DNA of 64,000 nucleotides from an uncultured delta proteobacterium (GTDB taxonomy: Bacteria > Desulfobacterota > Binatia > UBA9968): contig CAVSHR010000004.1 in assembly GCA_963727625.1 (NCBI GenBank), positions 1,536,001-1,600,000 on the forward strand, in the 5' to 3' direction. The position numbers and the translations under genes were made by a program. Each line of letters opens with the position of its first letter. Positions within the stretch are counted from its first letter, which is position 1. Of this stretch, positions 1-55,594 are shown one piece after another. Under the pieces are notes generated by a model, which was not told where the DNA came from, ran no database searches, and worked only from the letters and a program-made list of their open reading frames with translations.

Positions 1-2
1 TT

Positions 3-12400: not shown

Positions 12401-12852
12401 TAGCCTCCTATTTACTTGAGCGGCTACCCGCTGCCATGATGCCATCGGCGTTTGTATTTTTGGATGCTCTGCCCCTTTCACCCAACGGTAAGGTCAATCG
12501 CGAAGCACTTCCCGAACCGAGTCACAATCGATCTGAAGCATGCGAGGCTTTCGTGGCACCGCGCACCGAACTTGAGCAGATTGTCGCGGGTATTTGGGCA
12601 GAGGTTCTCAAACTGGAGAGAATCGGCGTCCACGACAGTTTTTTCGAGCTGGGTGGGCATTCACTACTTGCGACCCAGATTGTTTCAAGACTTCGCGTAG
12701 CGCTGCACGTGGAGTTATCTTTGCGGGCTCTATTTGAAAAACCGACCGTCGAGCGTTTATCTGACCACATCGAGGGGCTTCGGTGCGCCGGAACAGCAAA
12801 TCAGCCGACGTCCATAGATGCTTTCGGTGAGAAAGAAGAGATATTGCTATGA
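9460..12852 (+). CDS. NRPS module: docking-C-A-PCP; A domain of the DxRH (acidic/aminoadipate-like) type
   Basis: N-terminal LSLEKRALLELRLK; HHIVSDGWS; FTSGTTGIPKP; FDAVLRDIF; LGGHSL; C-terminal short motif EKEEILL. Confidence 0.95.
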   Translation: MDNDSFKTPETKDHLAGRIAGLSLEKRALLELRLKNNLARASAELIIQRVALRESVPLSFSQQRLWFLDQYEPNSSVYNVPSAQRLRGPLDIGALEHSLGEIVGRHEALRTTFSVVEGEPVQVIAPAASISLPVSDLSHFANSEREEEARRLATAEARRPFDLSQGPLFRATLIRLDEDDHLLLLTMHHIVSDGWSMGVLHRELSVLYQAFSQGQPSPLADLPIQYADYAVWQREWLKKDELDRQLSYWKKQLEGVPAVLNLPTDRPRPAVQSHRGARQSITLSKELSEKLKGLSRTQGVTLFMTLLAAFQTLLYRYTGQEDIVVGSPIANRTRTEIEGLIGFFVNTLVLRSNFSSNPTFKELLAQVRETALGAYAHQDLPFEKLVEELKPERTPSHSPLFQVLFNMAGQGDFNLDLPGLTTERLSFSDAESKFDLTSYVGEQKDEISVNLVYRVDLFSESWITCFLQQYRYLLEQLVSTPEKSIRSYSLVTPESRVLLPDPSAVLTEPPQKLVTDKFLSWARQTPVQPAVSQGQQTLTYEQLAEHADSIARALMATGLEPGDVVAVHGRRSFGLVAAMIGTFLSGGVLLLIDPNLPKRRKQLMLKEARARKFLSIGDQDENTGVNADYAIDVLSVDPATGHVLGLKNAVDLNTISSPKVSPNDPAYIFFTSGTTGIPKPVLGCHKSLSHFLGWQRETFAIGPNDRVAQLTNLSFDAVLRDIFLPLTSGATLCLPELNDDAGSADPICWLERERISVLHTVPSLADSWLASEVQPFYLPHLRWLFFVGEPLTDTLVRQWRVTVKNAGEIVNLYGPTETTLVKCFYRVPADPRPGVQPVGSPISGAQALVLGHDNQLCGVHEPGEIVLRTPFRSLGYLNASDESRKRFIKNPFRDDAEDLIYFTGDAGRYRADGTLEILGRLDDQVKIRGVRIEPAEVTAILSQNPLVASCIVVGKKNEGGETRLVAYVAASKQGQTSGAQLASYLLERLPAAMMPSAFVFLDALPLSPNGKVNREALPEPSHNRSEACEAFVAPRTELEQIVAGIWAEVLKLERIGVHDSFFELGGHSLLATQIVSRLRVALHVELSLRALFEKPTVERLSDHIEGLRCAGTANQPTSIDAFGEKEEILL
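9643..10667 (+). repeat. Copy 1 of a ~1025 bp near-identical direct repeat (C-domain coding region)
   Basis: Matches 13089-14113 at a constant offset of 3446 nt with only scattered substitutions. Confidence 0.93.
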
Positions 12853-18215: not shown

Positions 18216-19498
18216 CAAAAAAAAATAACCAGATGGACCCATCAGAGCTAGCGAGCCGCTTTGCCAATCTTTCACCTTTGAAACGAGCGTTTTTGGAGGA
18301 AAGGCTTAAGGAAAAGGGTCTCTATTCTTTAGTTAAGCCGACTATCCCATATCGGACGACATCGGAAACAGCAGCTCTACTCCCAACGGCAAGGTGGACC
18401 GAAAGGCACTGCCAGCCCCTGAGCTGAGGCGGTCGAGTCTTGAAAGAAAACTACGTACCTCCTAGAAATTTTACGGAAAATAGCATCGCTAAAATCTGGC
18501 GCGAAGTGCTTGGCATAGATCGAATAGGGATTCACGATAATTTCTTTGACTTGGGTGGCCATTCACTGCTTGCAGTAAAACTCCTGTCGCAGTTGGGGAA
18601 TTTTTATAATCTAGACATAAAAACGCGCTGGCTGTTCGAATCCCCTACCATCGCACAGTTTGCCAAGCACATCCGGAGTAGAAGTTTCTCCAACGAAGGA
18701 GAGAAAGCAACGTGGTCAAATTTAGTGAAGTTGCAGCCGAGTGACGGGAAACGGCCGGTGTTTTTTGTTCCCGGAGGTGCCGGTGGTGAACAAGACATGC
18801 TCAGATGTATCCCCCTCCTTCGTCGACTTGGAGATAAGTATTCCTTTTATGGATTATTGAGCCAGGACAACCGGGTGCTCGGGAGCGTCGAAGAAATCGC
18901 TAAAGAATACCTCAAAGAAGTGAGAACCGTTCACCCCGACGGTCCATATGTTTTGATCGGCGAGTGTATTTCGGGGGTTGTAGCGTACGAGATGGCCCAA
19001 CAACTGCGTGCTCAAGGCCAAAACGTCGCTTTATTGGCGCTTTTAGATACTGTTCGGGTGACCAAACGCAGGTACTTTAATTTTCAACGTCACTATTACC
19101 TGCAAAGACTGACTGTTCATTGGAACCATTTACAAGAGTTCAATTTAGGGGAAAAGATTGTTTATTCGTTGCAAGCAGCAAAGGCAGTTGTCTCCGCGAA
19201 GTTCTTTCTTGATGGGAAACGAGGCAAGAAGAACAGCCAAAAGATAAGCACTACGGGATACGACTACGATACGACTCTTCTTCGTTACCGCCCGCGGGAA
19301 TATCAAGCCCGTATGACCCTCATTTTAAGTGAAACGATTTACAACAGACAACCTGATGGAGGATGGGCTAACCTCGTGCCTGCCGGCGTAGACGTCTACA
19401 GGGTCAACGCTCCTCACAATACATACCTGACAGATCACGTCGATTTTACCGCTACACTCTTGAGAGAATGTTTAGAATGCGCGGAAGGGGATATTTAA
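18212..19498 (+). CDS. Docking helix + A-domain tail + PCP + thioesterase; intact ORF 18440-19498, frameshifted 5' part
   Basis: LSPLKRAFLEERLK, then TPNGKVDRKALPAPE in another frame at about 18379. PCP DLGGHSL; TE with GECISG, LALLD and APHNTYL. Confidence 0.82.
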
Positions 19499-19525
19499 AA
19501 TCAAACTGATTCCTGCTCTTGCCCC

Positions 19526-41333: not shown

Positions 41334-42284
41334 TCATTGAGCGCTTTTGTCCAGGCTGTTGAGCCCAGCGATCTTGCGTATCCGGTGCGGTTTCCAACGA
41401 TTATGCATCCACAGGTATTGCTCGGGACGGTCGCGGACCAGCAGCGTCAGCCGCCGGTCGAGTTCATGCGCGAGCCGCGGCAATTCATGATTCGGGTCCA
41501 ACGAAACATCCGGCCAGATAGGTTCGGCAATTTGAAAGTCAAAACGCCCCGACAAGGGTTGCCGATAACACGCTCCGACAACGATCGGCCGGTTACGCTG
41601 CAAGGCCAGCACCATCGGCAGGGGTGTCGTCAAGACGGACATGTTGCGGACGTCAAAGGCGAGGCTCGCGCTGGTTCGTTGATCGGCGAGAATACCAACG
41701 GAACGCCCGCGATCGAGAGCGCCGAGCAATGCCGGCAGCGCGTTCTTTTTGGCGACGAACAGCTCCGCTCCCGGCACGCGCTCGCGATCGAGCGGGCACA
41801 AGCGGCGTTGCAATGTGCCATTGCGCAGCGGATTGATCGGAATGGTCAACGGAATTTTCGCCGCAGCGAGAACATACGGCAGGATCGAATAGCTGCCGAT
41901 ATGCGCCGTAACAAAAATACAGCCTCCGGTATCCGAGTGCAGCTTGCTGATTTTTTACAGACTCGCCGAACCTTCAATCCATGAGTCGGGAAACCCGGCG
42001 GCCGCCTTGCCATCGGCGAAGAAGTGACGGAATCGAATGTTTTCGATGACTACTAGGGCCAAATTTGCGCTGCTGCGTCGCGCGACGACGCGGAGATCCC
42101 GCGGGGTTCTTTCACCGCTATAGAAACGGCGCAAATTATCCAGCGCAGCTTTGCGCCGCCGCGGCACGAGATAATACGCGCCTTGTCCGATGAGATAGGC
42201 GAGACCATTTAACACTGGCCACGGCGTCGAGCCCAGCGTGGGAGAAATAATCCCGGTCATCAGTGAGGCTAAACAGCGACTCAT
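41334..42284 (-). pseudogene. LpxL/HtrB-family acyltransferase with an in-frame TAA at 41955-41957
   Basis: The two ORF pieces share one frame: ...EGSASL*KISKLHSDTGGCIFVTAHIGSYS...GILADQ...RPEQYLWMHNRWK. Confidence 0.85.
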
Positions 42285-42370: not shown

Positions 42371-43462
42371 TCAGAACTTCCAGCGATCATGCATCCAAAA
42401 ATATTGTTCCGGATTCTCGCGGATCAATCTTTCCATCCGCTGGTTCAACTCTCGCGTCAAACGGACGATTTCGCTGCGTTTGTCACGCGATGGTTCAGGC
42501 CACAGCGGTTCGGACAGCACTATTTCGTATGCTTCCAGACCTTTGCGCCGGCAACAGGCGCCGACGACAATCGGCCGATTACAGGCCAGCGATAACAGCG
42601 CGGGCACGGGCGTGGTCAAAGCAGGATATCCGAGAAAGTCCAGCGCTACGCCGCGAAGCGTGCGCTGGTCTGGCAATATCCCCACCGATCGACCCTGGTT
42701 AAGCGCCCTGCGCAAAGTGTGAAACGAATTTCGCCGCGGCACATAAATTTCAGCGCCCGGCCACGCTTCGCTGTTGAGCGGCCACCAACGGCGATGGATC
42801 TCTTGATTAGCCAGCTCGTGGACCGGCACCACCAACTGCACACCACCGGCGGAAAACAAGCTCGGCAGCGCGCTAAAATTTCCGATATGCGGCGATGCGA
42901 AGATACAGCCGCCGGTCTCTAGATGGATCGCCCGTGCTCGTTCCAACACGGAGTCCAAGTGCGCGATCCTTTTTCGCACCTCAGCCAAACCGCCGGGCCG
43001 CTGAGCTAAACCACGAAAGCGGTGAAACTCGATCACCGCCAAAAGCAGCGACACAAAACTTTTGCGTGCAATTGCTCTGATTTCCGGTTCCGTCTTTTGG
43101 CCGCGATAAATCATCCACAGGTTTTTGAGGGCGATCTTGCGCCGGCGCGTAGCCATCCAATAAGAAGAGCAACCAAAACCGCGCGCCATACGCGTCAGTT
43201 GTTTCATTTCCAGAGCGGACAACCGTCCCATCAACAGACAGGCCGATAAATATTCGAGCCTCCGTCGCAGGGAGCTCGCGGCCACCCGGGCCCTACGAAC
43301 CCGGCGCCGAGGTCTCGGCGAGCGCCGCAACACGGCCGGTGAGCTTGTGCTACTTCCAGGTGTCAATTTCATGGGGAGACACGGGCCCGCCGATCGGCAG
43401 CGATACATCGAACGGGTCGGTAAATTCGCTTCGCGGTTGTCGCACACGGAGCTTGGCGTCAT
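42371..43462 (-). CDS. LpxL/HtrB-family acyltransferase (start uncertain)
   Basis: IALKNL, SPHIGNF, GILPDQ, NPEQYFWMHDRWK. Confidence 0.9.
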   Translation of the reverse strand: MTPSSVCDNREANLPTRSMYRCRSAGPCLPMKLTPGSSTSSPAVLRRSPRPRRRVRRARVAASSLRRRLEYLSACLLMGRLSALEMKQLTRMARGFGCSSYWMATRRRKIALKNLWMIYRGQKTEPEIRAIARKSFVSLLLAVIEFHRFRGLAQRPGGLAEVRKRIAHLDSVLERARAIHLETGGCIFASPHIGNFSALPSLFSAGGVQLVVPVHELANQEIHRRWWPLNSEAWPGAEIYVPRRNSFHTLRRALNQGRSVGILPDQRTLRGVALDFLGYPALTTPVPALLSLACNRPIVVGACCRRKGLEAYEIVLSEPLWPEPSRDKRSEIVRLTRELNQRMERLIRENPEQYFWMHDRWKF

Positions 43463-45434
43463 GTTTCTCGATGGCGCGGGCCTTGCGAAGCACCGGTAAC
43501 AGCAGCTTTCGCCGCAAGTCGCGCCGCGGCCGGCTATTGGCGTAATAGTGCAAAAAGCGCAGCCGATCGAATCGGCTCAGCGGCAACGCCAGCGACGAGT
43601 AATGAAGCTGCGCCAAATCTTTCACGATCCAACGCCGACCCGGAAACCTGCCACGGCCGACCCTTTGCAAATCGATAATTTTTAAATCCGGCCCGTTCTC
43701 GGCGTCGAACCTGGCAAAGATATGACAGAGGTAAAAGTCTTGATGATTGAATTCGGCGCCGTGCATGTTACGGGCGAGCTCGGCCGTGGCCCGAATCAAC
43801 AACCGCTTCTCGCGCCGGGCGGCGTCGGATAGCGGCGCAACCAAGCGCGCTGCAATATACCGATCGAGCGGCAAATAACCGTCCAGCCGCAGGGTCATGA
43901 GGAAGGACTCGCGGCTTCCGTCGGCTAGTAGGCGCTCGCCGGCGGCCACAGGCGTGGCGGTGGGGAGTCCGGCGGATTGGAATTGCAGGATATTGCGCCA
44001 TTCTTGGATGCCCTGACTCTTGGCTTGCAGACCGGCAGCCGCCAAGACTCGCGTGATCCAGGAGCCCCGCCGGCGATGAAACTTGAAAAAACAGACCTGT
44101 TCTCGTCCTTCACCGGCGAGGTTTAACAGTGAAATGCGTTTGTTGCGGTTGTACTCGATCTGGGTGCGTTGTGAGGTGTGTAAAATTGCCGCAAAGCCGG
44201 TCAGGCCCTGGCGCCGCAATAGCTGCAGAAATTTTTCATTGACCCACAGATCCGGCTCGATCCGAACCGGCGCCACTTCGCTCGGCGCGCGCGCCGATGC
44301 TTCCAAAACGGCGACGACCTGGCGTAGATGATCCGCCATCGCTAGCTGGTTCACTCGCCGGTAGGACGCGCCAGCCGCGACCGCGCTTCGTTCATGGCTC
44401 GCTATGGCGCGAATCCGGCGCGCCCACTCGTCCGCACTGGCATCCGCTGCCAGGACAAAACCGTTTTGACCCTCGTCGATAAATTCCGCCGCGCCGTTCA
44501 TCGCCGTCGTGAGCACCGGCAAGCCGCATGCCACGGCCTCCAGACAAACCGTGGCGCAGGGGTCGTAACGCGTCGGCAGAATGAAAACATCGGCCGCCGC
44601 GAAATAGCGCTCGATGTCGGTGACCGCGCCGGTAAATAGCGTCACGTCGGCCACACCGAGTCTCTTAGCCCGGCGCCCGAAACGCGCAATTGCACCGCCA
44701 CCGACGACGATAAGCCGAAGCGGTACATCGTTATGACCGAGTTTGGCCAACGCGGCGAGCGCCAACGCTAACCCTTTGCGCTGGAAATTATTGGCGGCGA
44801 AAAGCAGCGCGACTTCACGGTCACCGAGGCCTAGTTCGCCCCGGGTAATAGCGCGCCAGCGCTCGCGCGCCTGCGGATTGAATCGCGCCGCGTTGAGCCA
44901 GGGGTAGATAACCGTAATCCGCTCGGCGGGCACGCCGTATAGTCGCCGCACCTGGCGCCCGACTAATTTGGAGTTGGCGATGCAGTCTACCGATGGCGAG
45001 GTCAGAATTATTTTCTCCAGCGACAAATTGACTGCCATGACCGCGCGCTTCAAACACATCACCCAGCGCACCAGGGCGCGTGGCCAGGCTAGCCGCGCCC
45101 ACACGCGGTACAGACCGTCGCCGAGCCAGAAAACCTGTTGGGGTAGGAACGGCGTCATGCCAAGGACGGCGTCGTAGTCCGCCCTGCACAGAAGTCGGCG
45201 CAGGTTAAAATGAAACAACAACACCCGCAGCCATGCCGGTTTTTTCACCATCGCCACTCGGTGATAGATCACACCCGCAAGCTTGGGACTGTCCCAGTTA
45301 TAAGCGAAAGCATGGACTTCGTGCCCCGCTTCCGCGAGAGCACGGATCAAATCCACCGCGTAGCGTTCCGCCCCGCCCTTCTTGACCGTCAAGTAGGGCC
45401 GGACCACGGCGATTTTGAGCGGGCCGCGTTTCAA
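43350..45434 (-). CDS. Fusion of GT4 (WaaG-like) glycosyltransferase and WaaP-like heptose kinase
   Basis: GGAERY, NFQRKG, PTRYDPCATVCLEAVACGLPV; then HQDFYLCHIF, IIDLQR, WIVKDLAQLHYS. TTG start overlaps the upstream stop. Confidence 0.88.
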   Translation of the reverse strand: MKRGPLKIAVVRPYLTVKKGGAERYAVDLIRALAEAGHEVHAFAYNWDSPKLAGVIYHRVAMVKKPAWLRVLLFHFNLRRLLCRADYDAVLGMTPFLPQQVFWLGDGLYRVWARLAWPRALVRWVMCLKRAVMAVNLSLEKIILTSPSVDCIANSKLVGRQVRRLYGVPAERITVIYPWLNAARFNPQARERWRAITRGELGLGDREVALLFAANNFQRKGLALALAALAKLGHNDVPLRLIVVGGGAIARFGRRAKRLGVADVTLFTGAVTDIERYFAAADVFILPTRYDPCATVCLEAVACGLPVLTTAMNGAAEFIDEGQNGFVLAADASADEWARRIRAIASHERSAVAAGASYRRVNQLAMADHLRQVVAVLEASARAPSEVAPVRIEPDLWVNEKFLQLLRRQGLTGFAAILHTSQRTQIEYNRNKRISLLNLAGEGREQVCFFKFHRRRGSWITRVLAAAGLQAKSQGIQEWRNILQFQSAGLPTATPVAAGERLLADGSRESFLMTLRLDGYLPLDRYIAARLVAPLSDAARREKRLLIRATAELARNMHGAEFNHQDFYLCHIFARFDAENGPDLKIIDLQRVGRGRFPGRRWIVKDLAQLHYSSLALPLSRFDRLRFLHYYANSRPRRDLRRKLLLPVLRKARAIEKHDAKLRVRQPRSEFTDPFDVSLPIGGPVSPHEIDTWK

Positions 45435-46501
45435 CGGCAGATCCCCGCGCTGGACTGTGCACCGGTCGTTTGGTTTCGGGACGCTCGGCTTCGCAGCAGC
45501 GCCAAAGCCGCGCCGAGGACTTCGTCGACGCTGATCGATGTGAGACACTGCTGCGCATGGGCGCAGCGCTGGCGGTCGCAACCGCGGCACGGAAAATCTT
45601 TTTTGAGCGCGACGTTGGCCGGGCCGTAGGGGCCAACCCGCCGCGGCTCGGTGGGACCGAATATCCCTATCACCGGCGTACCCACGGCGGCCGCCAAATG
45701 CATTGGGCCCGAGTCGTTACTGATCACCAGCGCCGCCCTTCGCAGCAGTGCCGTGAGTTGGAGCAAAGTAGTCGCGCCCGCCAAATTAATCGCGGTACAT
45801 CTGAGCCGGCGCATCACTTCGCTTGCTTGAGAATTCTGTTCGCTACCGGCGATCAATAAGATCCGCGCGTTGTGCTCCGCGGACAGGCGGTCAACGACTT
45901 CGGCAAATCGCTCCGGTGGCCAGCGCTTGGTTTCCCAGCGCGCCGCCGGATGAATGACCACCGCGCTCTGAGCGCCGCCAAGCCGTTCTCTCAGCCAAAG
46001 CGCTTCCAACCAATCCTCGGCTTTGCGCGACCGCGGTAACGGAAAGCTCGGCGGTGCGTCACCGGGCAGTCCGATCTGGCGTAAGAGATCGAGATTGCGC
46101 TCCACCGCGTGTACGGCGTTGCTGGCAGGCTCGATGCGCAAAGTATAACACCAACGGCTTCCCTCGCGGCTATCGGCGAAGCCGATGCGCGTCGGCGCGT
46201 GGGTCATCAAGCCGGCAACCCCGCTGCGCAGCAGGCCCTGGAGATCGATGACCATATCGTAGCGACAACGGCGAAAGCTGTTTCTCAACACTCGCCACGC
46301 CGCGAGATGCTTCGGTAACAGCAGCACTTCATTGAGGGCCGGCTGGTCCAGCAGCAATTCGGCCCATTCCTCCTTGACCAGCCAGTCCATGGTCGTTTGC
46401 GGCCAATGGCGCCGTAACAAAGCAAGCACGGGGAGAGCGTGAATGATATCGCCGAAGGAACTCGGTTTAATTATTAAAAGTCGGCGCGGCGCGGTGATCA
46501 T
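45431..46501 (-). CDS. GT9 LPS heptosyltransferase (WaaC/WaaF-like)
   Basis: LIIKPSSFGDIIH, IDLQGLLRS, TKRWP, SNDSGPMHLAAAVG. Confidence 0.93.
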   Translation of the reverse strand: MITAPRRLLIIKPSSFGDIIHALPVLALLRRHWPQTTMDWLVKEEWAELLLDQPALNEVLLLPKHLAAWRVLRNSFRRCRYDMVIDLQGLLRSGVAGLMTHAPTRIGFADSREGSRWCYTLRIEPASNAVHAVERNLDLLRQIGLPGDAPPSFPLPRSRKAEDWLEALWLRERLGGAQSAVVIHPAARWETKRWPPERFAEVVDRLSAEHNARILLIAGSEQNSQASEVMRRLRCTAINLAGATTLLQLTALLRRAALVISNDSGPMHLAAAVGTPVIGIFGPTEPRRVGPYGPANVALKKDFPCRGCDRQRCAHAQQCLTSISVDEVLGAALALLRSRASRNQTTGAQSSAGICR

Positions 46502-46670
46502 CGGACGTGCCCCCGCTCTACTCGTATCGCAACCCAGGCAAGGCATCCGATGCTGGCGACCGCCAACGACGCGCTGGCGAACGACCGGGCGGCGGATCCC
46601 GTAGTTGGTCGCTGTTGGACGCCATGGCGAGCCGTTTTCACAATGATATGGACCACCGGCAACGACACGC

Positions 46671-48131
46671 TCAAAGGCATAGCGACTGAAAAGCCAAGAT
46701 TATTGCCAGCGACTTCGACGCGACTTCCGCGGCAAAGGAACGCATCTGCGCCACGCTTACTTCGCATCTGAGCAGGTCATCGATGATCGCCATATTCCGG
46801 TCGACGACGCCCTGATTTCTGGTCACCAGCGCGCAGGCTTTTCGGCCCATTTCCGCCGCTACTTCCGGTGCGCCGATGAGGTGCTCGATATGGCCGGCCA
46901 ACTCCGCGCCGCTGTGAACGCGAATCGCCGCCCCTTCCCGTTCCGTCGTTTCAGCAATACTGCTGTAGTTTTCCATATGCGGACCGAAGAAAAGCGGTTT
47001 ACCCCAGGCCGCCGGTTCGAGGATATTATGGCCGCCGCGCTGGATGAAGCTGCCGCCGACGAAAACAAAGTGAGCCAGGCCGTAAAGTCTCGGCAGGTTG
47101 CCCACCGAATCGACCAGCGCAATGTGATCGGGCTGCCAGGCTTCGAACGCCGACCAGCGCTGCGACGCATAGCCGAGCCGACGGATCAACCCTTCCACCG
47201 TCGCGAGCCGTTCCAGATGGCGCGGCGCGATCATGAGAAATACTTCGTGTTTATTTCCGCGCAACCGGCGGTAGCAGTCGAGCAGCTCTTCCTCCTCGCC
47301 AGGATGTGTGCTGCCGGCGATCAACAATACCGCTCCCGGCGGCAACGGGTAGCGTCCATCTTCCAGCGGTGGCGCGTCGAGCTGGCCGAGGGCCTGGGCG
47401 AATTTTAAATTGCCGGTGACGCTTATCTTGCTGGGAGGGACGCCGATCTTGAGCAACCGCTCGGCGTCGACTTCGGTTTGCACGCAAATATGATTGAGCA
47501 GACCGAACACCGAGCGAAAGAAGAAGCGGAACTTCACCCGGCGTTGCGAGATGCGGCCGTTTACCAGTACCGACGGCACGTTATGCCGGGCCAGACACTG
47601 CAGCAGCGCCGGCCAGAGATCGGTTTCGACGATCAAGAATATCGTCGGCGCGACTTTAGCGACCACGCGTCGAACCACCCAAGCCGCATCGAGAGGACAA
47701 TAAAAGACTCGATCCGCGGCGATCCGATTGGCTACCGAAACCGCCCGGCCTGCGGGCGTCGCAGTCGAAAACATGATGCAACTTCGCGGGTAGCGCGCGC
47801 GAATGGCGCCAACGAGCGGAATTGCCGCCGTCACCTCGCCTGCGGAAACCGCGTGCAGCCAGAAACACGGCGCCGCTGGTTCCGCGCATTCCGAGCCGGG
47901 GACATGAGCCGGCGCCCCGTTCTCGCCCACCGCTATTCTATCTATTTTACCGAAGCGCTCGGAAAAGCTCGCTAAGTAATCGCGCCGGCGCACGAGCTTG
48001 ATCAACAACCAAAGCAGGATCAGCGGCAAAAACAGCAGAACCAACATGTGGTATAAAATAAACATCGAACGATCGTCGTCAATCTTCCGGACGCCGCTCT
48101 GCGAAAGCCCTCCGGTTGCTGGCCGGCTCAT
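46671..48131 (-). CDS. waaA: Kdo transferase
   Basis: WLHAVSAGEV, ETDLWP, VNGRIS, TGNLKF, AGSTHPGEE, APRHLER, GGHNILEPA. Confidence 0.95.
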   Translation of the reverse strand: MSRPATGGLSQSGVRKIDDDRSMFILYHMLVLLFLPLILLWLLIKLVRRRDYLASFSERFGKIDRIAVGENGAPAHVPGSECAEPAAPCFWLHAVSAGEVTAAIPLVGAIRARYPRSCIMFSTATPAGRAVSVANRIAADRVFYCPLDAAWVVRRVVAKVAPTIFLIVETDLWPALLQCLARHNVPSVLVNGRISQRRVKFRFFFRSVFGLLNHICVQTEVDAERLLKIGVPPSKISVTGNLKFAQALGQLDAPPLEDGRYPLPPGAVLLIAGSTHPGEEEELLDCYRRLRGNKHEVFLMIAPRHLERLATVEGLIRRLGYASQRWSAFEAWQPDHIALVDSVGNLPRLYGLAHFVFVGGSFIQRGGHNILEPAAWGKPLFFGPHMENYSSIAETTEREGAAIRVHSGAELAGHIEHLIGAPEVAAEMGRKACALVTRNQGVVDRNMAIIDDLLRCEVSVAQMRSFAAEVASKSLAIILAFQSLCL

Positions 48132-48181
48132 TCAACCCGTTCGTGAATACCTGCCTCGGCAAATTCATCGGCTTCGCTGCG

Positions 48182-49600
48182 CTAATTGAGCTGCGGCAAA
48201 TCGACCATTTCATGGATATTGCCGCGGACCCGCGCGGCGTGAAATCCATCCTCGTGCTCGGCAACAATCATCGGCAGACCGTAGCGCGGCACCATGGTTA
48301 CTTGAAAGGCCCGTTCGACTCTTGCTCCTTCGACCATGCGAAAACTGAACCGCGGCAGGATAGCGCCGAGCACCTGCTTCATCATCCGCATGGCGAAGAC
48401 CGGACCGATGCATTGCCGCGGCCCGGCGCTGAACGGAATATATTCATAGTGGCCCGGATTAATCGTGCGCCAACGCTGCGGATCGAAGCGGTTCGGATTG
48501 GGATAACGCTCCGGAATTCTATGGGTTAGGTAATGACTGCAAATAACCCGGTCGCCCCTGCGCAGGACCAAATTCATCAGCTCCGTGGGCGTCGTCACGG
48601 CCCGCAAGGTCAACGCCACCGCGGGCAAAACACGCATCGACTCCTTGATTACCGCATCCAGCAACGGCAAATTTTCCAAATCGCGGTCGCACGCCGCGCT
48701 TATTTCGTCGCGCAAGGCTAGAGCCACCATCGGAAACTGCGCCAGCAAAAACAATGTCCAGCTAAGAGTCGTCGCGGTGGTTTCAAAGCTCGCGGCAAAT
48801 AAAATCGCCGCTTGTCCGAATAAATCGTTTTCAGTGACGTGAGCCCTACCCTCATCGCGCGCTCTGATCAGCACGGACAAGACATCGCCGCGGTGATTTT
48901 TATCAGCCCGCCGGCGCCGGATCATTTCCTGGATCACCCCGGCTAAACGCTCGGCGTACTTGAGCAAACCGTGAAAAGAAGTACCAGGGCAGTCGACCGG
49001 GAAGTAGGTCGATCCAAAGGTGTAGCTGCGCTGAAACCACTCATCCACCATGGAACCGAAGGATAAAGAGGATTCGCCGCCGGTTTCGCCGAAAAGAGTC
49101 TCTCCGGAAATCCGCATGGTGATGCGGCGCATCTCCTCGTCCATGTCAACGACACCGCCGGCCCGCCAGCGGCCGAGCTCGTCGGCGATAATCGCCTGCA
49201 TGATCGGTGTATAGCGATCCACCGCGCTTTTCATCACCGCCGGCATCACCAGCTGGCGCTGCAAACGATGTTTCGGCTCTTTCATGCGCGTCAAGCCTTG
49301 GCGCAGCTTGCTTTGCCATGAGCCGCGCGGACCGGGTATGCCCTGACCGCCGGTGCGGAACAACTCGGGATGACCGAGGACTTCTTGGTTCCACACCGGT
49401 CCGAAGGCAAAGACGGTAGTTCTGCGCGGACCGCCCAAGGGCAAGGGCGGCCGCAGCGCGCAAAAGTCGCCGTAGCGCTTTTGCACCGCGATGAGGCAAC
49501 CGATCGGATCGCGTAAATAGTATAGATACCACCGCCAGGTGGCAGTGCCCCGCAAAAGCACTGCGGCACCGACGCTTGAATTGGCTGACGAGTCGCGCAC
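48182..49600 (-). CDS. Cytochrome P450
   Basis: I-helix AASFETT, K-helix KESMR, FDPQRW, heme ligand PFSAGPRQCIG. Confidence 0.96.
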   Translation of the reverse strand: MRDSSANSSVGAAVLLRGTATWRWYLYYLRDPIGCLIAVQKRYGDFCALRPPLPLGGPRRTTVFAFGPVWNQEVLGHPELFRTGGQGIPGPRGSWQSKLRQGLTRMKEPKHRLQRQLVMPAVMKSAVDRYTPIMQAIIADELGRWRAGGVVDMDEEMRRITMRISGETLFGETGGESSLSFGSMVDEWFQRSYTFGSTYFPVDCPGTSFHGLLKYAERLAGVIQEMIRRRRADKNHRGDVLSVLIRARDEGRAHVTENDLFGQAAILFAASFETTATTLSWTLFLLAQFPMVALALRDEISAACDRDLENLPLLDAVIKESMRVLPAVALTLRAVTTPTELMNLVLRRGDRVICSHYLTHRIPERYPNPNRFDPQRWRTINPGHYEYIPFSAGPRQCIGPVFAMRMMKQVLGAILPRFSFRMVEGARVERAFQVTMVPRYGLPMIVAEHEDGFHAARVRGNIHEMVDLPQLN

Positions 49601-49683
49601 TTTAGCGGATATTATGTCCGGTAAACGTGAGCGTCAACCGAAATGACCGTTAATTTGGCGGTGGCAAAGATAATAATATTGTT

Positions 49684-51249
49684 TCAAATTTCCCGGGACA
49701 GCTTGACAATCCGGCGAAAAAACTTTCGCGGCTGCGCGCCGGCGCGTTCACCGAGATAAGACTTTACAAATCTTAGCCGATCCGCCGCCGTGAATGACTG
49801 GCAGGAGGCAACAGCACGCAGCAAGCGCGCGCTATTTTTTGCTCGTACTCGCCATGACACCGCTTTGCAAATAAAGCCGTCAAAGTCAATAATCTTGAGA
49901 TTGTAGCGGTTTTCGCTGCCTTGCTGAACCATGATGTTTTCCGCTTTGAGATCGCGGTGCGCGACGCCGCGGTCATGCATCCGTCTGAGCATCAATGCCA
50001 GCGCTCGGATCAGCTCTAGCTTGGCGCGCCGATCGTCGCTTTGGCGCGCCAAAACCTCCGACAATTCGTTCCCCGCAGCCTCGCTGGTGATCAAATAGCT
50101 CTCCCGTAGTACCCGCCAGCGACGGCGCTCGATATAGGCTACGGGAAGCGCCACACCGACACCGCGCATGAAGCAACTATTGCCGGCGCGCCACACTCGC
50201 TTGGCCCGCGAGGCGCGAAGGAAATCTTTCAGCGCGTACGCGACACCTTGATAGTTGTAGCGCTTAACGAACAACGCATGTTCCGCGAGCGCTACCTCTC
50301 CGACGGTCGTGGTGCGGGAGTCCTTGACGATGGAGGCCTTGGAAAATAGCCTGCCGGGATTGGCAAGCAAAGATTGCAATTCGTCATTCCACGCGCCGCG
50401 TCGGACAAAACCCCTGAATTCGCCGTTTCGAAACCGGGAGAATTCTCGATTGTCGGCCAGGCAGCGCTTTTGCCTCGAGCGCCAAACATCGAGGCGATGA
50501 CGCTGCCCCGCCTTATCCAAGTGCCGCGTCAAGCGCCGCTCATCGATGGCCAAGATCGGACGCAAAGATAGATAAGCCTTCAGGAAACGGCGGCGATCGG
50601 TCCGACTCGCACTAACGCATCCGCCATGCAGCGCGGCGAGGTCTCGCCAGCGCTTGGCGGTTGCGCGCAGAGCATCGATATTGACTCTTTGCAGATCGAG
50701 GAGAAACAGTTGGGACTTGGCCCCGCAGTCGCGATAGAGCAGATTGCCGAGATGAAGATCGCGCTGATAAAAGCCCTCGTCGTGCATGGCTCGGATCGAC
50801 AGCGCCGCTTGGCGCAAGATTCGCCATTTTTTTGACGGCGGCTCTTGGCCGCCAAAAAGTTCTTCCAGGGACACCGCATCATCGACAAACTCGGTCACCA
50901 ACAAGCTCTGCCGTGTCGATCCCTGACGCCGCCAGCCGAGGGCAAGAGCCTTGGGCACGGCCAGGCCGCGCCGTTCGGCTTCGCGCAGGGCGCGCCACTC
51001 GCGCAGCGCCGGCGCGCCGCGCCAGAAATTTTTCACTTGATCGAGCACGCCGCGGTGAAAAAATTGCTTGACGATCAGCGCCGGCCGACCGGGAACATAC
51101 AAGACGCGCCGGCGCTGGGTGTAGCGAAGAATTCGACAGGGCAGCTTCGGCGGCAAATGGACAATCGCGCGGGCAGCGGCGCAGTCGGCGAGTTCGCCCC
51201 AGATAACGCCTTCAAGATCGAGCTCGCAAGCCCGGTACGCCTCATCCAT
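49684..51249 (-). CDS. Tandem two-domain Kdo/WaaP (InaA-like) LPS kinase
   Basis: Domain 1: ALREW, QRDLHLGNLL, LLDLQR, DRRRFLKAY. Domain 2: SRAKRVW, HRDLKAENI, IIDFDG, DRLRFVKSY. Confidence 0.9.
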   Translation of the reverse strand: MDEAYRACELDLEGVIWGELADCAAARAIVHLPPKLPCRILRYTQRRRVLYVPGRPALIVKQFFHRGVLDQVKNFWRGAPALREWRALREAERRGLAVPKALALGWRRQGSTRQSLLVTEFVDDAVSLEELFGGQEPPSKKWRILRQAALSIRAMHDEGFYQRDLHLGNLLYRDCGAKSQLFLLDLQRVNIDALRATAKRWRDLAALHGGCVSASRTDRRRFLKAYLSLRPILAIDERRLTRHLDKAGQRHRLDVWRSRQKRCLADNREFSRFRNGEFRGFVRRGAWNDELQSLLANPGRLFSKASIVKDSRTTTVGEVALAEHALFVKRYNYQGVAYALKDFLRASRAKRVWRAGNSCFMRGVGVALPVAYIERRRWRVLRESYLITSEAAGNELSEVLARQSDDRRAKLELIRALALMLRRMHDRGVAHRDLKAENIMVQQGSENRYNLKIIDFDGFICKAVSWRVRAKNSARLLRAVASCQSFTAADRLRFVKSYLGERAGAQPRKFFRRIVKLSREI

Positions 51250-52015
51250 CTTTCCGTCCGGCGGATGACTTTTTGAGCGCGCGGCCAAGCCGCTGGAAGC
51301 GGCAGGTAAAATCATAGAGTGACGAGAGTCGTCTCTGAAAGCGCTTGAGGGAAGTGAATTCGTCTACCGGAACCCTTTTCAGACGAAACTGATCCCGCCG
51401 CGCGTGCAGGTTGCCCCGGCGGATCGAACAAGCGAGCCGGTAACCGGCCTCCGCGGCGAGGCTTTGCGCCAGCGCATTATGATCGCCGTAGGGATAGGCG
51501 AAGCTGGTTGCGGCAACGCCGAGCTTTTCTTCGAGCTCGAGTCGTGAGTGCAAAAGCTCCCGCCTGGCTTCGTCCAGCGGCACCCGCGTGAGGCGCGGAT
51601 GGCTGATCGTATGCGAAGCGATTTCAATGCCATGCCGGCTGATTTCCTTAATCTGCGACCAACTCATCAACGGAGTTTGGCAGCCGCCGTCCCACCGGCT
51701 CGCGCCACCCACCTCGCGGGTGACGACAAACACCGTCGCGACAAAATTATGACGCGATAAAATCGGATATGCGTGTTGGTAGAAATTGTCGTAGCCGTCA
51801 TCAAAAGTGAGCGCGGCGATTTTGTTGTTTTCGCCGCCCTGACCGAGAATGATTGGCAAGGCCTCGCGCAGGCTGACGCAGCGGTAGCCGGCGCGCGCCA
51901 GATAATCCATTTGCTCGGCGAAGCGCTCGCTAGAAACCCACAAGCGGCGGTGCCCGAGCGGCTCCCGTTTCACGCCGACGTGGTGATAATAGAAAATCGG
52001 TAAGAGTCTCGCCAT
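51242..52015 (-). CDS. Polysaccharide deacetylase (CE4)
   Basis: YYHHV, LTFDDGY, ASHTISH, FAYPYG. Confidence 0.93.
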   Translation of the reverse strand: MARLLPIFYYHHVGVKREPLGHRRLWVSSERFAEQMDYLARAGYRCVSLREALPIILGQGGENNKIAALTFDDGYDNFYQHAYPILSRHNFVATVFVVTREVGGASRWDGGCQTPLMSWSQIKEISRHGIEIASHTISHPRLTRVPLDEARRELLHSRLELEEKLGVAATSFAYPYGDHNALAQSLAAEAGYRLACSIRRGNLHARRDQFRLKRVPVDEFTSLKRFQRRLSSLYDFTCRFQRLGRALKKSSAGRKDG

Positions 52016-53199
52016 CACGCTTCCGGTCGCGACGCTGCGCCGCTTTCCGTTACGGTGAAATCCGCGCGCTGCCCGTTTAGCAGCGCTTGATAGAGCTCCA
52101 GATGGCGCCTGGCCACCCTGTTCCAATGGAATTTGTCCACCCAGCGGCGCGCTTGCTCGCCCATGCGCTGGACGCCGGCCGAGTCGTCAAGCATGGTTGC
52201 CAACGCTTCGGTGAGCGCGGAGACGGAATCGGGCTCGAAGAGCACGCCGGTTTGGCCGTCGACGACGAGCTCTTTCAATCCAGAAACGGCACTGCCGGCC
52301 ACGGCTCGTCCCGCCGCGTAACTCTCCAATGCGACCAGGCCGAACGCCTCATCGAGCCGCGACGGGATAACGCTAAACAGCGCGTTCTGCAGCAGATAGG
52401 CCTTAGTCGCACCGTCGACCCAACCGACGAAGCAACACCGATCGGCCAATCCTAACTCCTTTGCCTGCGTTAAAAGCGCCGGGCCGTCGTCTCCCTCGCC
52501 GGCAATCACCAGTTGACATGAACGCTCCGTCGAGGCTTTAGCGAATGCGGCCAACAGGCAGTCCACGCCTTTTCTAACCCGCAAGCGGCCGAGGTAAAGA
52601 ATATAGTTGCCTGCTTGGACTCTGTCATCGAGCCCAACGGGCCGTTTATGGAGCCCACTCCAGCGTTCGATGTCGACGCCGTTGGGAATCCGCACAATCG
52701 ACCGCACTGCCGGACAAAGGCGCCGATACTCCGCTTCCATCGACTCGCTGAGGGCCACCAGAACGTCGGCTTGGGCCAACGCTTCGAGGTAGCGACCGCG
52801 AATCTGGCGTTTGGCCAGGCGCACATTTTCCTTGCCGAGCCCTCCCTCGTGGTTGGTCACGACGACGGGAACCGGCATCGCCGCGCGACAAAGCGCGGCG
52901 ATGTATCCAGGCGGATAGATGCCGTGGCAGTGCAACAAGTCGAAGCCTTCGCGCCGATAGAGCCGCAGCAAAGAACCCCGATACCAGCTCACAAATTTGT
53001 GGGTGGAATAAAACCGCGGATGGCGCACAACAGCGTAAGGAAGAGCCTTGTCCAGTGCCTTGAGCGGCCGGCGCGGCCGCGGCGCCAACACAACGACCTG
53101 GTGGCCCATGGCCGACATCGCTCGCCCCAGGGCGTCGACCACCACCTCTTGGCCGCCGCGTTTGGGCATCGCGGTGCTGGTGTAATAACAGATTTTCAG
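52015..53199 (-). CDS. GT4 glycosyltransferase; probable CTG start
   Basis: (M)KICYYTS...GGQE, IPNGVD, YLGRLRVRKG, EAFGLVALES. Confidence 0.9.
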   Translation of the reverse strand: MKICYYTSTAMPKRGGQEVVVDALGRAMSAMGHQVVVLAPRPRRPLKALDKALPYAVVRHPRFYSTHKFVSWYRGSLLRLYRREGFDLLHCHGIYPPGYIAALCRAAMPVPVVVTNHEGGLGKENVRLAKRQIRGRYLEALAQADVLVALSESMEAEYRRLCPAVRSIVRIPNGVDIERWSGLHKRPVGLDDRVQAGNYILYLGRLRVRKGVDCLLAAFAKASTERSCQLVIAGEGDDGPALLTQAKELGLADRCCFVGWVDGATKAYLLQNALFSVIPSRLDEAFGLVALESYAAGRAVAGSAVSGLKELVVDGQTGVLFEPDSVSALTEALATMLDDSAGVQRMGEQARRWVDKFHWNRVARRHLELYQALLNGQRADFTVTESGAASRPEA

Positions 53200-53230: not shown

Positions 53231-54589
53231 TCATACGCGAGCCGGTCGAAAAGACTTTAGCACCATCACGGCGACGGTCGCGAAGTACCCGGGGCGCAAG
53301 ATGCCATGGGGCGGAAAGGGCGAACCGACCAGGGCGGTCAACCGACCGGTCTCGGAATTAACGGCATAACCCGAGACGGTGTCCACCTCGCGATTGACTA
53401 GATAGAGGAATCGGCCGGCCGGGTCGATGATCGGCTCGCGCGGATGACTGCCGGGCAAAAATTTCGAACCCGAGCTAAACGGCGCTCCGGCGATCGGGGT
53501 CAAAACGCCGCTGTTCTCATCGACCATAAAAGCGGAAATATCTCCCGAGCGGTAATTGTTGACGTAGAGGAATTTGCCCGATGGATGAAAAATCGGCCAC
53601 ACCGGATAGATGCCGGCCGCGAATGGCGATCCGGGCAATTCCGCGAGCGCGCCGCCGCCATCGATGGCGAAAGCCGACAGCGTATTAAAACGCAAATTGG
53701 TCACGTACCCGAACCGGCCGCTCGGATGAATCGTAAAGGCAAAGGGGCGCTTGCCGACGGCGCGGGGCGAATTCGCCAGCGGCAGCAAACGCCCCGTGCT
53801 CCCGTCGATGGTGAAAAGCGATAAATCGTTGGAGCCACGATTGGTGACGTAGAGAAATCTGCCGCTCGGGTCGATGTTGATCGACCTTGGGTCATTGCCC
53901 ACCTTGACCGGCGAATCGGCGAGGGGCTTGAGCGCGCCGTTTTCCAAGTCGATCGCATAAGCGGAAATGGTGTCGGCGCCCTGATGGGCCGCATAGGCAA
54001 AGCGACCGAACGGATCGATGACCGTGTAGCGCGTGCGCTGACCGGCGGGAACTTGGCCGGCCGGCTCAAGTGCGCCCGACTGCTGATCCACGGTGAATAC
54101 CGAGATGCTGTGGAAATCACGATTGGAGACGAAAGCCAGCCGGCCCGAAGGATGGAGCCTCACGTTGCGCGGCCGGGCCCCGGTCGGAAACGGGGAACCC
54201 GGAATCGGCTTGAGTTGGCCGGTCTCGGAATTGATCTGAAAGCCGGAAATGGATTGCCCGTCCCAATTGGCGGCATAAAGAAAACGGCCATCGCCATCCA
54301 CGGTCACCGCCCGCGGATGCTTGCCCGTGCGAAACGGCGATTGCGGCACTGCCGCGAGCCGGCCAGTGTGGGGCTCGATGGCGTAAGCGGAAATCGCTGC
54401 CAAATCCCAATTAGCCGCGTAAAAAAAGTTTCCGCTGGGCTCGACCAGCGAAAGCCGCGGGCCGAACCAATCGGAAACGTAGGTGTAACTCGAACTCAAC
54501 AAGCTGCTCGGCGTAGACAATTGCGATTGCGGCCTCGTGGAAAATCTTTCTTCGGGAAGTTTGACTAGCCGTTGGAATGGAAATATCAC
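53231..54589 (-). CDS. Lactonase-family (Pgl-like) beta-propeller with 8 internal repeats
   Basis: Repeated unit [DH]PSGRFLYVxN...IS.F.ID..TG.L..L.GSPF..G..P; no obvious signal peptide. Confidence 0.88.
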   Translation of the reverse strand: MIFPFQRLVKLPEERFSTRPQSQLSTPSSLLSSSYTYVSDWFGPRLSLVEPSGNFFYAANWDLAAISAYAIEPHTGRLAAVPQSPFRTGKHPRAVTVDGDGRFLYAANWDGQSISGFQINSETGQLKPIPGSPFPTGARPRNVRLHPSGRLAFVSNRDFHSISVFTVDQQSGALEPAGQVPAGQRTRYTVIDPFGRFAYAAHQGADTISAYAIDLENGALKPLADSPVKVGNDPRSINIDPSGRFLYVTNRGSNDLSLFTIDGSTGRLLPLANSPRAVGKRPFAFTIHPSGRFGYVTNLRFNTLSAFAIDGGGALAELPGSPFAAGIYPVWPIFHPSGKFLYVNNYRSGDISAFMVDENSGVLTPIAGAPFSSGSKFLPGSHPREPIIDPAGRFLYLVNREVDTVSGYAVNSETGRLTALVGSPFPPHGILRPGYFATVAVMVLKSFRPARV

Positions 54590-54610: not shown

Positions 54611-55594
54611 CTACCGGCCGTGAAACCGGTCGTTCGTCGCGCGATCATAATATTTGCAGGACCGGCGTGACCTGAAAAAAAACTCAGCTGCGCGCGCGCC
54701 GGCTGCCATAGGTCCGGCGTTGGCGCCGCGACGACATTTTTTGTAGCGATTGTAGTTCCAATAATATTGGTCGGGATAGCGGCGCACCAGGTTCTCGATG
54801 GCAAGATTGAGCTTGGTTTCGTCGAAATCATCGGCCGCCAGCGGCTCGAAATGCAGCCGGAAGCCTTTGCCACCGGGCAATCGCTCACCGAATGTCAGCA
54901 TGAAGGCCGCACCGCTCAATTGTTGCAACTTGCGCGGCAGTGTCGCCGTGAACGCCGGTTTGCCGAAAAAGTCGGCCCACACCCCCTCGCCGATGCCCGG
55001 CGCATGATCCGGCAATAGCCCGATCGACTCGCCGCGACGCAAGGCTTGGCAGAGCATCTTGACCCCTTTGAAGCTGGTCGGCGCCAAAGGCATCTGCCGA
55101 TAAGTTCGGCCGCTGAGCATTAATTCATCGAGCCGTTTCGACCTTTGCGGCCGATACATCACCGCTAGCGGGAACTGGGTAGCCACATAACGGGCGGCGA
55201 TTTCGAAGCAGCCCATATGAGGCGACAGGAAAATGATGCTCTGTCCTTGGCGGTGCAAGGATTCTACTTTATCCCAGCCACGGAGCTCGACGACAAGGCG
55301 GGTGAAGGCTTTTTCATCTCTGAACCAGACTGCCGGCAATTCCATCAAAGCACGGCCGTCTTGCGCGATCACGGCATGCAAGAGCTTACGGTACGACTGC
55401 GCATCGCCGCCGAGACCGCTGATGGCGAGATTACTTTGCATGCGCCGCGCATAGCCCGAAGAAAACCAGTACACCAGCCAACCGACCGCAACTCCATAGG
55501 CATGTAACCATTGCAGCGGAATCCTGCTCGTCAGGCGAAGAAACGACAACAACAACGAATCCACACTCCGGCTCCCGTCGACGATAACGTTCAA
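54611..55594 (-). CDS. LpxL/HtrB-family lipid A acyltransferase with the canonical motif
   Basis: SPHMGCFE, MYRP, GLLPDH, FFG, YPDQYYWNYNRYK. Confidence 0.92.
   Translation of the reverse strand: MNVIVDGSRSVDSLLLSFLRLTSRIPLQWLHAYGVAVGWLVYWFSSGYARRMQSNLAISGLGGDAQSYRKLLHAVIAQDGRALMELPAVWFRDEKAFTRLVVELRGWDKVESLHRQGQSIIFLSPHMGCFEIAARYVATQFPLAVMYRPQRSKRLDELMLSGRTYRQMPLAPTSFKGVKMLCQALRRGESIGLLPDHAPGIGEGVWADFFGKPAFTATLPRKLQQLSGAAFMLTFGERLPGGKGFRLHFEPLAADDFDETKLNLAIENLVRRYPDQYYWNYNRYKKCRRGANAGPMAAGARAAEFFFRSRRSCKYYDRATNDRFHGR

Follow-up and report, generated by a model that had tools for sequence, protein, structure and literature searches.

The closest described systems are the oxygenases that tailor lipid A and the inner core of lipopolysaccharide (LPS). 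LpxO (PF05118) is an Fe2+/2-oxoglutarate-dependent 2-hydroxylase of lipid A acyl chains, which works on the cytoplasmic side and is encoded with or near LPS genes. KdoO (PF11004) is an Fe2+/2-oxoglutarate-dependent Kdo 3-hydroxylase, an inner-core tailoring oxygenase that acts after WaaA. To our knowledge, all established lipid A or Kdo tailoring oxygenases are non-haem iron dioxygenases.

A preliminary description of the 64-kb stretch of DNA analysed here (the window) pointed to an intact cytochrome P450 gene between an LPS kinase gene and waaA, and proposed that a P450 with a function in LPS would be new. This part of the proposal agrees with our literature search, which found no P450 placed in lipid A or LPS-core synthesis. 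By gene position only, the P450 is a candidate for oxidising LPS or lipid A, which would make it an enzyme of a new kind. In the 98%-complete genome we found no gene of the LpxO family (PF05118) and none of the KdoO family (PF11004), searches in which the control genomes were equally silent.

The P450 gene and its surroundings

Table 1. Features of the P450 locus (positions in the window).
Feature	Position	Strand	Remarks
LpxL-family lipid A acyltransferase homologue	42371..43462	minus	PF03279 at 9.7e-30; start probably over-extended
GT4 glycosyltransferase fused to WaaP-type kinase	43350..45590	minus	ORF of 746 aa as listed
GT9 heptosyltransferase	45431..46546	minus	orthologues (50-52% identity) at same position in sister genera
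WaaA-family (GT30) Kdo-transferase paralogue (WaaA2)	46671..48131	minus	PF04413 at 2.8e-51
P450-WaaA2 gap	48132..48181	minus	50 nt to longest ORF; 116 nt if WaaA2 starts at Met23
Cytochrome P450 gene	48182..49600	minus	472 aa, GTG start, intact; haem-thiolate loop, ExxR, I-helix E-T pair
kinase2x-P450 gap	49601..49683	minus	83 nt; promoter-like TTGACG-17-TAATAT at 49637..49609
Tandem two-domain WaaP/Kdo-family LPS kinase (kinase2x)	49684..51315	minus	543 aa; PF06293 at 3.4e-39, two stretches
Polysaccharide deacetylase family gene	51242..52126	minus	PF01522; directly upstream of kinase2x
GT4 glycosyltransferase	52015..53169	minus	profile match
Seven-bladed beta-propeller, lactonase family	53231..54589	minus	PF10282 at 8.7e-60
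LpxL-family acyltransferase	54611..55594	minus	NF006487 at 328.7 bits, cut-off 281

We could confirm that the P450 gene is intact. Its reading frame is open over the entire length, and PF00067 is the sole Pfam match of the protein (E 4.2e-65, 220.7 bits with the cut-off at 22.8, residues 60-431), which therefore belongs to neither PF05118 nor PF11004. All catalytic motifs are present and invariant in the 16 of 16 aligned orthologues, namely the haem-thiolate loop F390-S-A-G-P-R-Q-C397-I-G399 including the proximal Cys, the K-helix motif E320-x-x-R323, the PERF-like motif P369-N-R-F372 ... R376-W377, and the acid-alcohol pair of the I-helix in A269-A-S-F-E273-T274. The AF2 model (mean pLDDT 78.8, pTM 0.83) has a P450 fold, and in a structure search with this model every match listed, out of at least 500 in the PDB with E <= 0.001, is a P450. 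The acid-alcohol pair marks the type of P450 that depends on O2 and a redox partner. Since this pair is kept, the enzyme would draw its electrons from a ferredoxin and a reductase. The model for the CYP152 peroxygenases, whose cut-off is 600, reaches only 31 bits. As the preliminary description had stated, no ferredoxin partner (PF13459, PF00111, PF13370) is encoded within the 64-kb window; the matches to these families in the same genome all lie outside C4:1536001-1600000, with candidate ferredoxins at C6:43560-43790 and C12:52945-53112. The predicted redox partners would thus be encoded elsewhere.

Two observations could suggest that the gene is decaying or non-functional. The database gene call (P0002) is truncated to 367 aa, and no obvious Shine-Dalgarno sequence precedes the GTG start. 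Full-length orthologues, however, back a length of 472 rather than 367 aa. With the full-length frame open, every motif invariant and a dN/dS of 0.12, decay is scarcely credible. The dN/dS of the P450 gene (0.12-0.18) indicates a stronger constraint than that of the adjacent kinase gene (0.18-0.24), and purifying selection maintains the P450 gene. A recent foreign insertion was rejected on the basis of composition, since the GC3 of the gene (0.698) falls within the range of its neighbours and of housekeeping genes (0.64-0.75).

The neighbouring kinase2x contains a second kinase core (residues 405-479) and scores below the cut-offs of the RfaP and KdkA models. Its orthologues are 54-71% identical at three other loci that carry a close relative of the P450 (L024-L026), and 40-45% identical in sister genera. 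The deacetylase gene has an orthologue (52% identity) in one of these genomes (G259), where it also lies directly upstream of kinase2x. At L026 this position is taken by an orthologue of the LpxL encoded at 54611..55594 (74% identity).

The preliminary description had the P450 gene co-oriented with its neighbours, 83 nt after the kinase gene and 50 nt before waaA. The orientation and the first distance hold; the second applies to the longest ORF and is probably 116 nt. We place the probable start of WaaA2 at 48065 (Met23) because three indications agree: the WaaA proteins of relatives align from residue 23, the NCBIfam models begin at residues 22-25, and the L026 homologue starts at the equivalent Met. 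The gene for the GT4-kinase fusion also probably starts further in than listed, since its ORF as listed runs into the heptosyltransferase gene and the alignment with orthologues begins at residue 58. We found no terminator-like site on the strand of these genes in either gap flanking the P450. The count of promoter-like sites in the region (9, compared to 5.4 +/- 2.5 in shuffled sequences) is not above chance, so that the site upstream of the P450 is only a lead.

The gene downstream of the P450 encodes a member of the WaaA family (PF04413), as described, but it is not the waaA of the genus. WaaA2 scores 310.7 bits with NF004388 (cut-off 438), and is 36-41% identical to the waaA products of all 40 relatives and 47-50% identical to those from the corresponding cluster of sister genera. 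Judged by these comparisons, WaaA2 is a divergent second copy, and the waaA that the genus conserves is found at another place in the genome. Because WaaA2 is a paralogue, the P450 belongs to a second inner-core cluster (cluster B). That the bacterial family keeps two WaaA-containing clusters raises the question as to what the second one produces.

Nearest relatives of the P450

Membership in a CYP family was judged by the customary line of 40% or more identity to a characterised or named P450, or by a score above an equivalog cut-off. Among the PDB matches listed, identity to the P450 does not exceed 25%, and nine of nine NCBIfam P450 models score below their own cut-offs. The CYP family assignment envisaged in the preliminary description therefore reached no named family. 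A search of the ESM Atlas returned generic P450 clusters only.

The best structural match among those listed is Streptomyces avermitilis CYP184A1 with oleic acid bound (PDB 7wzl / 7wzm), at a Foldseek E-value of 6.9e-18 and TM scores of 0.75-0.77; this protein is also the second-best PDB sequence match (2.5e-31). CYP184A1 is described as a P450 that binds, metabolises and epoxidises fatty acids (PMC11214959). It is only 25% identical to the P450, far under the 40% line, comes from another phylum and has no LPS context. The next-best PDB matches are CYP170A1 (3dbg), CYP120A1 (2ve3) and CYP51 (6mcw and others), with sequence E-values of 3.4e-35 to 3e-28. According to entry titles and NCBIfam names these enzymes act on terpenoid, retinoid and sterol substrates. 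They resemble the P450 with TM scores of about 0.7, but share only 20-25% identity with it, and the NCBIfam model of the CYP170 type gives 160 bits where its cut-off asks for 700.

The top-scoring curated family is that of ApyO, an aminopyruvatide RiPP P450 (NF050147), whose model aligns over the whole length of the protein (residues 29-468, 284.7 bits). ApyO is described as linking two tyrosines within a precursor peptide (PMC13703928). Since the best family model is that of a peptide-crosslinking enzyme, the family resemblance does not point specifically to lipids. That the P450 itself crosslinks a small ribosomal peptide is nevertheless highly unlikely: the score stays far under the cut-off of 525, and Pfam and NCBIfam place every flanking gene in LPS families and none in a RiPP-type family.

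The same matches bear on the possibility that the P450 adds a hydroxyl group to the 3-deoxy carbon of Kdo, or to another core sugar, and so stands in for KdoO as an enzyme of a different kind. The gene lies directly between those for a Kdo/heptose-type kinase and a Kdo-transferase paralogue, and the genome is one in which we found no KdoO family gene (with the controls silent, as mentioned). On the other hand, the nearest solved relatives, among the matches listed, all bind hydrophobic substrates, and nothing argues positively for a sugar. We know of few P450s that act on free or lipid-linked sugars, and consider this function improbable, if less far-fetched than peptide crosslinking.

Conservation of the gene order

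The P450 gene follows kinase2x at four of four loci at which the P450 is at least 70% identical (the window, L024, L025 and L026), and it is followed by WaaA2 at the three that extend far enough downstream; the sequence of L024 stops 20 nt past the P450. The four loci lie on both sides of the basal split in the 15-row P450 clade (support 100/99), which probably puts the origin of the linkage at the base of this clade. Two source names are attached to the close orthologues, a Candidatus Binatia MAG and a Pseudorhodoplanes MAG. They all fall in one clade and hence count as a single recruitment, that is, as one piece of evidence. Between the window and L025 or L026 synonymous sites are saturated (dS 1.2-1.4), with the gene order kept. 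At L026 the surrounding genes are unlike those in the window, yet LpxL, kinase2x, P450 and waaA stand together.

More distant P450s are not linked to LPS genes. The sister clade (64% identity; L027 and L028, one arrangement) is located between genes for an Opp-type ABC transporter and for chemotaxis. Eight further loci from scans of genome collections (42-47% identity), P450 homologues of the same genus (32-40%) and a 43% paralogue in the same genome all have unrelated surroundings, among them purF-P450-SDR, Obg and glmS. The comparison of homologue neighbourhoods suggested in the preliminary description is therefore divided: the order is kept in every close locus that was read, but neither the 64% clade nor the 42-47% homologues share it. 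A single-protein scan for P450 homologues in species-representative genomes gave no match, and an alignment-based scan of the same collection gave only a 42% homologue from Gemmataceae and no other close orthologue. In a search of sequencing runs the locus appeared in four DNA runs (shares 0.07-0.10) and in 0 RNA runs.

Four sister-genus genomes contain the same cluster without a P450 orthologue (best match 27% identity). Their genes at the P450 slot encode LpxI, a GT2 or a metallophosphoesterase. As all of these are of lipid A, LPS or phosphoesterase type, the slot usually holds envelope-pathway genes. Two explanations for the presence of the P450 were discarded. An association with extra LpxL acyltransferases was rejected, since LpxL genes also occur in the sister genera, within the same region and at a distance of about 18-19 kb from kinase2x. 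Replacement of a missing second LpxI was not supported, since copy number and place of LpxI vary (one copy in G259, G152, G392 and the genome analysed here, G000; two in G325), and a P450 cannot catalyse the LpxI reaction.

These observations also define the main rival to a function in LPS, namely that the P450 acts on an unrelated substrate (for instance free fatty acids, terpenoids or hopanoids, or xenobiotics) and that its gene is a passenger, inserted once into a permissive slot and kept by descent. We regard this as a serious possibility, though on balance it is doubtful. It would account for the single recruitment event, for the variable slot in relatives (LpxI, GT2 genes, metallophosphoesterase), for the unrelated contexts of the closest outgroup and of all distant homologues, for the promoter-like site directly upstream, which could mean that the P450 is expressed independently, and for the lack of an adjoining redox partner. 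Apart from the variable slot, we counted each of these points against a role in LPS, along with ApyO as best family model and the sister clusters without P450. A passenger would not be expected to keep its place through saturated synonymous divergence (dS >1) under strong constraint, nor to stay within LpxL-kinase2x-P450-waaA where the surroundings differ as at L026, and no terminator isolates it from its neighbours. If the passenger reading is correct, the locus is an ordinary case of an LPS operon with a variable slot.

A possible role in LPS tailoring

In favour of a role in LPS we counted the shared strand, the short gaps without terminator-like sites, the neighbour-like GC3, the lipid-handling nearest solved P450s, the slot that usually belongs to the envelope pathway, and the failure to find LpxO or KdoO (controls silent). 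The interpretation offered in the preliminary description thus stands as far as an intact gene, a conserved position and purifying selection are concerned; it is weakened by the single recruitment, by the unlinked 64% clade and 42-47% homologues, by P450-less sister clusters and by the finding that waaA is a paralogue.

Our preferred reading, which we put a little short of an even chance, is that the P450 takes electrons from a ferredoxin and works as a monooxygenase on an acyl chain of the lipid A-core product of cluster B. The gene would have been recruited early, in one uncultured soil bacterial lineage, into this second LPS inner-core cluster, and is probably co-transcribed, and thus co-expressed, with the genes for the tandem WaaP-type kinase, the WaaA paralogue, the heptosyltransferase and the LpxL-type acyltransferases. 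The enzyme, predicted to be soluble and cytoplasmic, may hydroxylate or epoxidise the acyl chain of a lipid A or Kdo-lipid A-type intermediate. This oxidation would take place at the cytoplasmic face of the inner membrane, presumably ahead of export.

More tentatively still, the P450 clade could represent the first P450 dedicated to LPS biosynthesis and a third mechanistically distinct class of lipid A/inner-core oxygenase beside LpxO and KdoO. Its place of action would be a paralogous lipid A-core assembly line, the second in some uncultured soil bacteria beside the canonical pathway and equipped with a WaaA, a tandem kinase and acyltransferases of its own. If this is true, LPS biochemistry would gain a new class of enzyme, acyl-chain oxidations beyond the reach of LpxO (omega, omega-1, in-chain or epoxide) would become possible, and the locus would offer a starting point for studying the outer membrane of an uncultured but widespread soil lineage.

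Of the known systems, KdoO resembles the P450 as an inner-core tailoring oxygenase, the P450 gene adjoining one of the WaaA family. KdoO belongs to another enzyme class, however, and nothing points to a sugar as the substrate of the P450. The proposed role is closer to that of LpxO, since both would consist of O2-dependent hydroxylation of lipid A acyl chains on the cytoplasmic side. The folds are unrelated, and where LpxO is a non-haem iron dioxygenase that uses 2-oxoglutarate, the P450 would fill an LpxO-like tailoring role with haem-thiolate chemistry and electrons from a ferredoxin and its reductase.

The P450 gene and its relatives

The P450 gene, called intact in the preliminary description, was confirmed as such by a full 472-aa frame, a match to Pfam PF00067 (cytochrome P450, E 4.2e-65) and invariant motifs. 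Alignment to 15 orthologues shows four elements without variation: F390-SAGPRQ-C397-IG (haem-thiolate loop), E320-xx-R323 (K-helix), the PxRF...RW stretch at 369-377, and E273-T274, the acid-alcohol pair of the I-helix. The public gene call (P0002 in our protein search) has 367 aa and lacks 105 conserved N-terminal residues; because full-length orthologues keep these residues, 472 aa is the better model. Neither a membrane anchor nor a signal peptide is obvious at the N-terminus when the sequence is read by eye. The AlphaFold2 model (mean pLDDT 78.8, pTM 0.83) adopts the P450 fold, and its PDB structure matches are all P450s among the matches listed. By the Nei-Gojobori method, dN/dS of the P450 is 0.12 (dS 0.66) against the metagenomic locus L024 and 0.11-0.18 for more distant pairs, where dS >1 is saturated; neighbouring genes give 0.18-0.24 (kinase) and 0.08 (LpxL). 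Judged by these comparisons, the gene is maintained, and the gene order around it has outlasted synonymous saturation. That it is a dead gene is very improbable.

None of the nine NCBIfam P450 models reaches its cut-off. The best is ApyO (284.7 bits, cut-off 525), described as a peptide-crosslinking P450 (PMC13703928); despite this top score, an ApyO-like peptide enzyme is very improbable. By sequence, the PDB entries that match best are CYP170A1 (3dbg, 3.4e-35), CYP184A1 (7wzl), CYP120A1 and CYP51. The top structural match is CYP184A1 with oleic acid (25% identity), followed by CYP51, CYP120A1, CYP204A3, CYP725A4, CYP3A and CYP4B1. CYP184A1 is described as a fatty-acid-metabolising enzyme (PMC11214959), and the nearest relatives of the P450 handle hydrophobic lipids. 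The CYP family assignment suggested earlier was thus run against NCBIfam and PDB but reached no family: with models below cut-off and low PDB identity, the P450 falls outside every structurally characterised CYP family.

The surrounding LPS genes

The gene belongs to a single co-oriented minus-strand run of LPS genes (window 42.4-55.6 kb), flanked by PAP2 phosphatases, a sulfotransferase and GT2 genes. Housekeeping genes and an NRPS cluster fill the remainder of the window, and the GC3 of the P450 (0.698) is in line with its neighbours and the housekeeping genes.

Features of the window and two related genes elsewhere in the source genome (G000); the LPS run is numbered in order of transcription
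No.	Feature	Position	Strand	Detail
1	LpxL-family acyltransferase		minus	NF006487 above cut-off
2	Lactonase-type propeller		minus	
3	GT4 glycosyltransferase		minus	
4	Polysaccharide deacetylase		minus	
5	kinase2x, tandem two-domain WaaP-type kinase	49684-51315	minus	543 aa
6	P450	48182..49600	minus	472 aa, GTG start
7	WaaA-family transferase	46671-48131	minus	longest ORF
8	GT9 heptosyltransferase		minus	
9	GT4-WaaP kinase fusion	43350-45590	minus	also fused in sister-genus genomes G152, G259 and G325 (47-48% identity)
10	Second LpxL homologue	42371-43462	minus	
	Third LpxL-family match	about 41391-42239 (G000:C4:1577391-1578239)	minus	in-frame TAA
	Large NRPS cluster	1-19500		several C-A-T modules, TubC-type docking domain, thioesterases, stand-alone A domain
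	Other PF04413 gene (L040)	G000:C4:428829-430094		
	P450 paralogue (L019 / L038)	G000:C5:337075-338238		one in-frame TAG; frames 146 and 393 aa

As first described, 83 nt separate the P450 from the end of the upstream WaaP/Kdo-family kinase gene. The distance of 50 nt to the downstream Kdo-transferase-family gene holds for the longest ORF, but the true start is probably Met23 (48065), which would widen the gap to 116 nt, since relatives' proteins align from residue 23, family models begin at residues 22-25 and the homologue in metagenomic locus L026 starts at the equivalent Met. On the coding strand, neither flanking gap contains a terminator-like site. Immediately upstream of the P450 GTG is a promoter-like site; the region shows no enrichment of such sites relative to shuffles. 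The reported lack of a ferredoxin in the window holds for families PF13459, PF00111 and PF13370. Further along the run, the ORF of the GT4-WaaP fusion shares 160 nt with the heptosyltransferase gene, so its listed start probably lies too far upstream. The third LpxL-family match, just downstream of the second homologue, may be a broken duplicate.

Homologues and their contexts

A search of 5.8 billion proteins returned 22 clusters 63-86% identical to the P450, followed by a drop to <=49%; two of the 22 carry source names (Candidatus Binatia MAG, Pseudorhodoplanes MAG). No close orthologue was found in the species-representative genome collection. Among 40 relatives, the best matches reach 39-41%. 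The source genome's own paralogue (43%), surrounded by amidohydrolase, NMT1-type binding-protein and hydantoinase genes, may be a pseudogene.

A metagenome scan gave 12 loci, three with P450s at 70-86% identity. L024 carries the kinase2x C-terminus (71% over 124 aa) and the P450, 20 nt before the contig end; L025 carries kinase2x, the P450 and the WaaA N-terminus; L026 carries LpxL (74%), kinase2x (58%), the P450 and the WaaA start. Counting the window, kinase precedes P450 in 4/4 close loci, and waaA follows in all three that have downstream DNA. Upstream of this block, L026 (2081-6168) encodes iron permease, DPBB, EncFtn, encapsulin and PRC-barrel proteins; the same DPBB-EncFtn-encapsulin-PRC run occurs in the unpublished same-genus genome G005 (C284, L041), where it leads into a single-domain kinase homologue, without a P450.

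The proposed neighbourhood analysis thus bore out LPS linkage for the close loci but not beyond them. The 64% P450 of L027 and L028 (one arrangement) lies between Opp-type ABC transporter and chemotaxis genes, and the 42-47% P450s of L029-L035 and L023 have unrelated contexts (e.g. Obg, glmS, GT4). The same-genus homologues (32-40%; L036, L037, L039) and the paralogue are likewise unlinked: two show purF-P450-SDR, the others unrelated genes. The former, roughly 40% identical, share a conserved purB...purL-purF-P450-SDR arrangement (L036, G017:C3; L037, G009:C8). A second, different recurring context is formed by obg beside 46-47% homologues in L030 (two tandem P450s) and L032 (GT4-flanked) and by glmS in L034.

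In a maximum-likelihood tree of 35 rows, a 15-row clade (support 100/99) contains the four LPS-linked P450s, which fall on either side of its basal split; P0017, P0016 and the L027 group lie outside this clade. Within the clade the linkage is therefore old, yet it is a single event. Placement among LPS genes is real, beyond chance; the putative functional link rests on one conserved recruitment.

A second waaA, a variable slot and the proposed role

Although a Kdo-transferase-family gene does adjoin the P450, it is one of two PF04413 genes in the genome. The other lies within a canonical fabZ-lpxA-lpxI-lpxB-msbA-waaA-lpxK block, and in 23/24 same-genus genomes the single waaA matches it at 51-78% identity, whereas the window copy reaches just 36-41% against every relative's waaA (40/41 genomes matched). 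The window copy is thus a divergent second copy in a separate LPS cluster (cluster B).

kinase2x was not found in 39/40 relatives, the sole match being a half-length homologue in G005. Of 401 genomes drawn across the class, six contained it, the source genome included; the remaining five come from two sister genera within the family, g9 (3/3, one being unpublished G402) and g14 (2/2), while the window's own genus gave 0/21. The unpublished genomes G005 and G402 enter only these tallies and one side observation, and none of the conclusions rests on them. It is full length in L026 and these five (40-58% identity). The four published sister genomes share the order deacetylase-kinase2x-[slot]-waaA-heptosyltransferase-GT4/kinase, with proteins 40-52% identical to the window's, and three (G259, G152, G392) have two waaA genes. 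In this slot, G259 and G325 carry LpxI, G152 carries LpxI plus a metallophosphoesterase on the opposite strand, and G392 carries two GT2 genes; none of the four has a P450 orthologue (best match 27% identity). The P450 is hence the occupant of a variable slot in cluster B, a family-level second inner-core cluster.

Two readings meet here. The P450 may be a ferredoxin-dependent monooxygenase tailoring the lipid moiety of the lipid A-core product that cluster B makes, a proposal that is the better supported of the two and that we hold at somewhat under even odds. Its main rival, a passenger gene in a permissive slot, accords with the varied slot contents, sits less easily with the order kept in the close loci, and is a real though lesser possibility. 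A KdoO-like sugar hydroxylase, to which the neighbouring Kdo-transferase-family gene might point, is unlikely beside the lipid-handling relatives of the P450.

The novelty claimed for such a role agrees with our literature search, which found no paper on a P450 in lipid A or LPS-core synthesis but whose scope, outside most subscription journals, makes this no proof of absence. Among the matches listed, none was relevant by title for P450, hopanoid and lipid A, and none related for Binatia cytochrome P450. LpxO (PF05118) and KdoO (PF11004) were not found in the source genome, an absence that is unvalidated because neither family matched any control genome. The proposed role would resemble that of LpxO, although the P450 certainly belongs to neither the LpxO nor the KdoO family.
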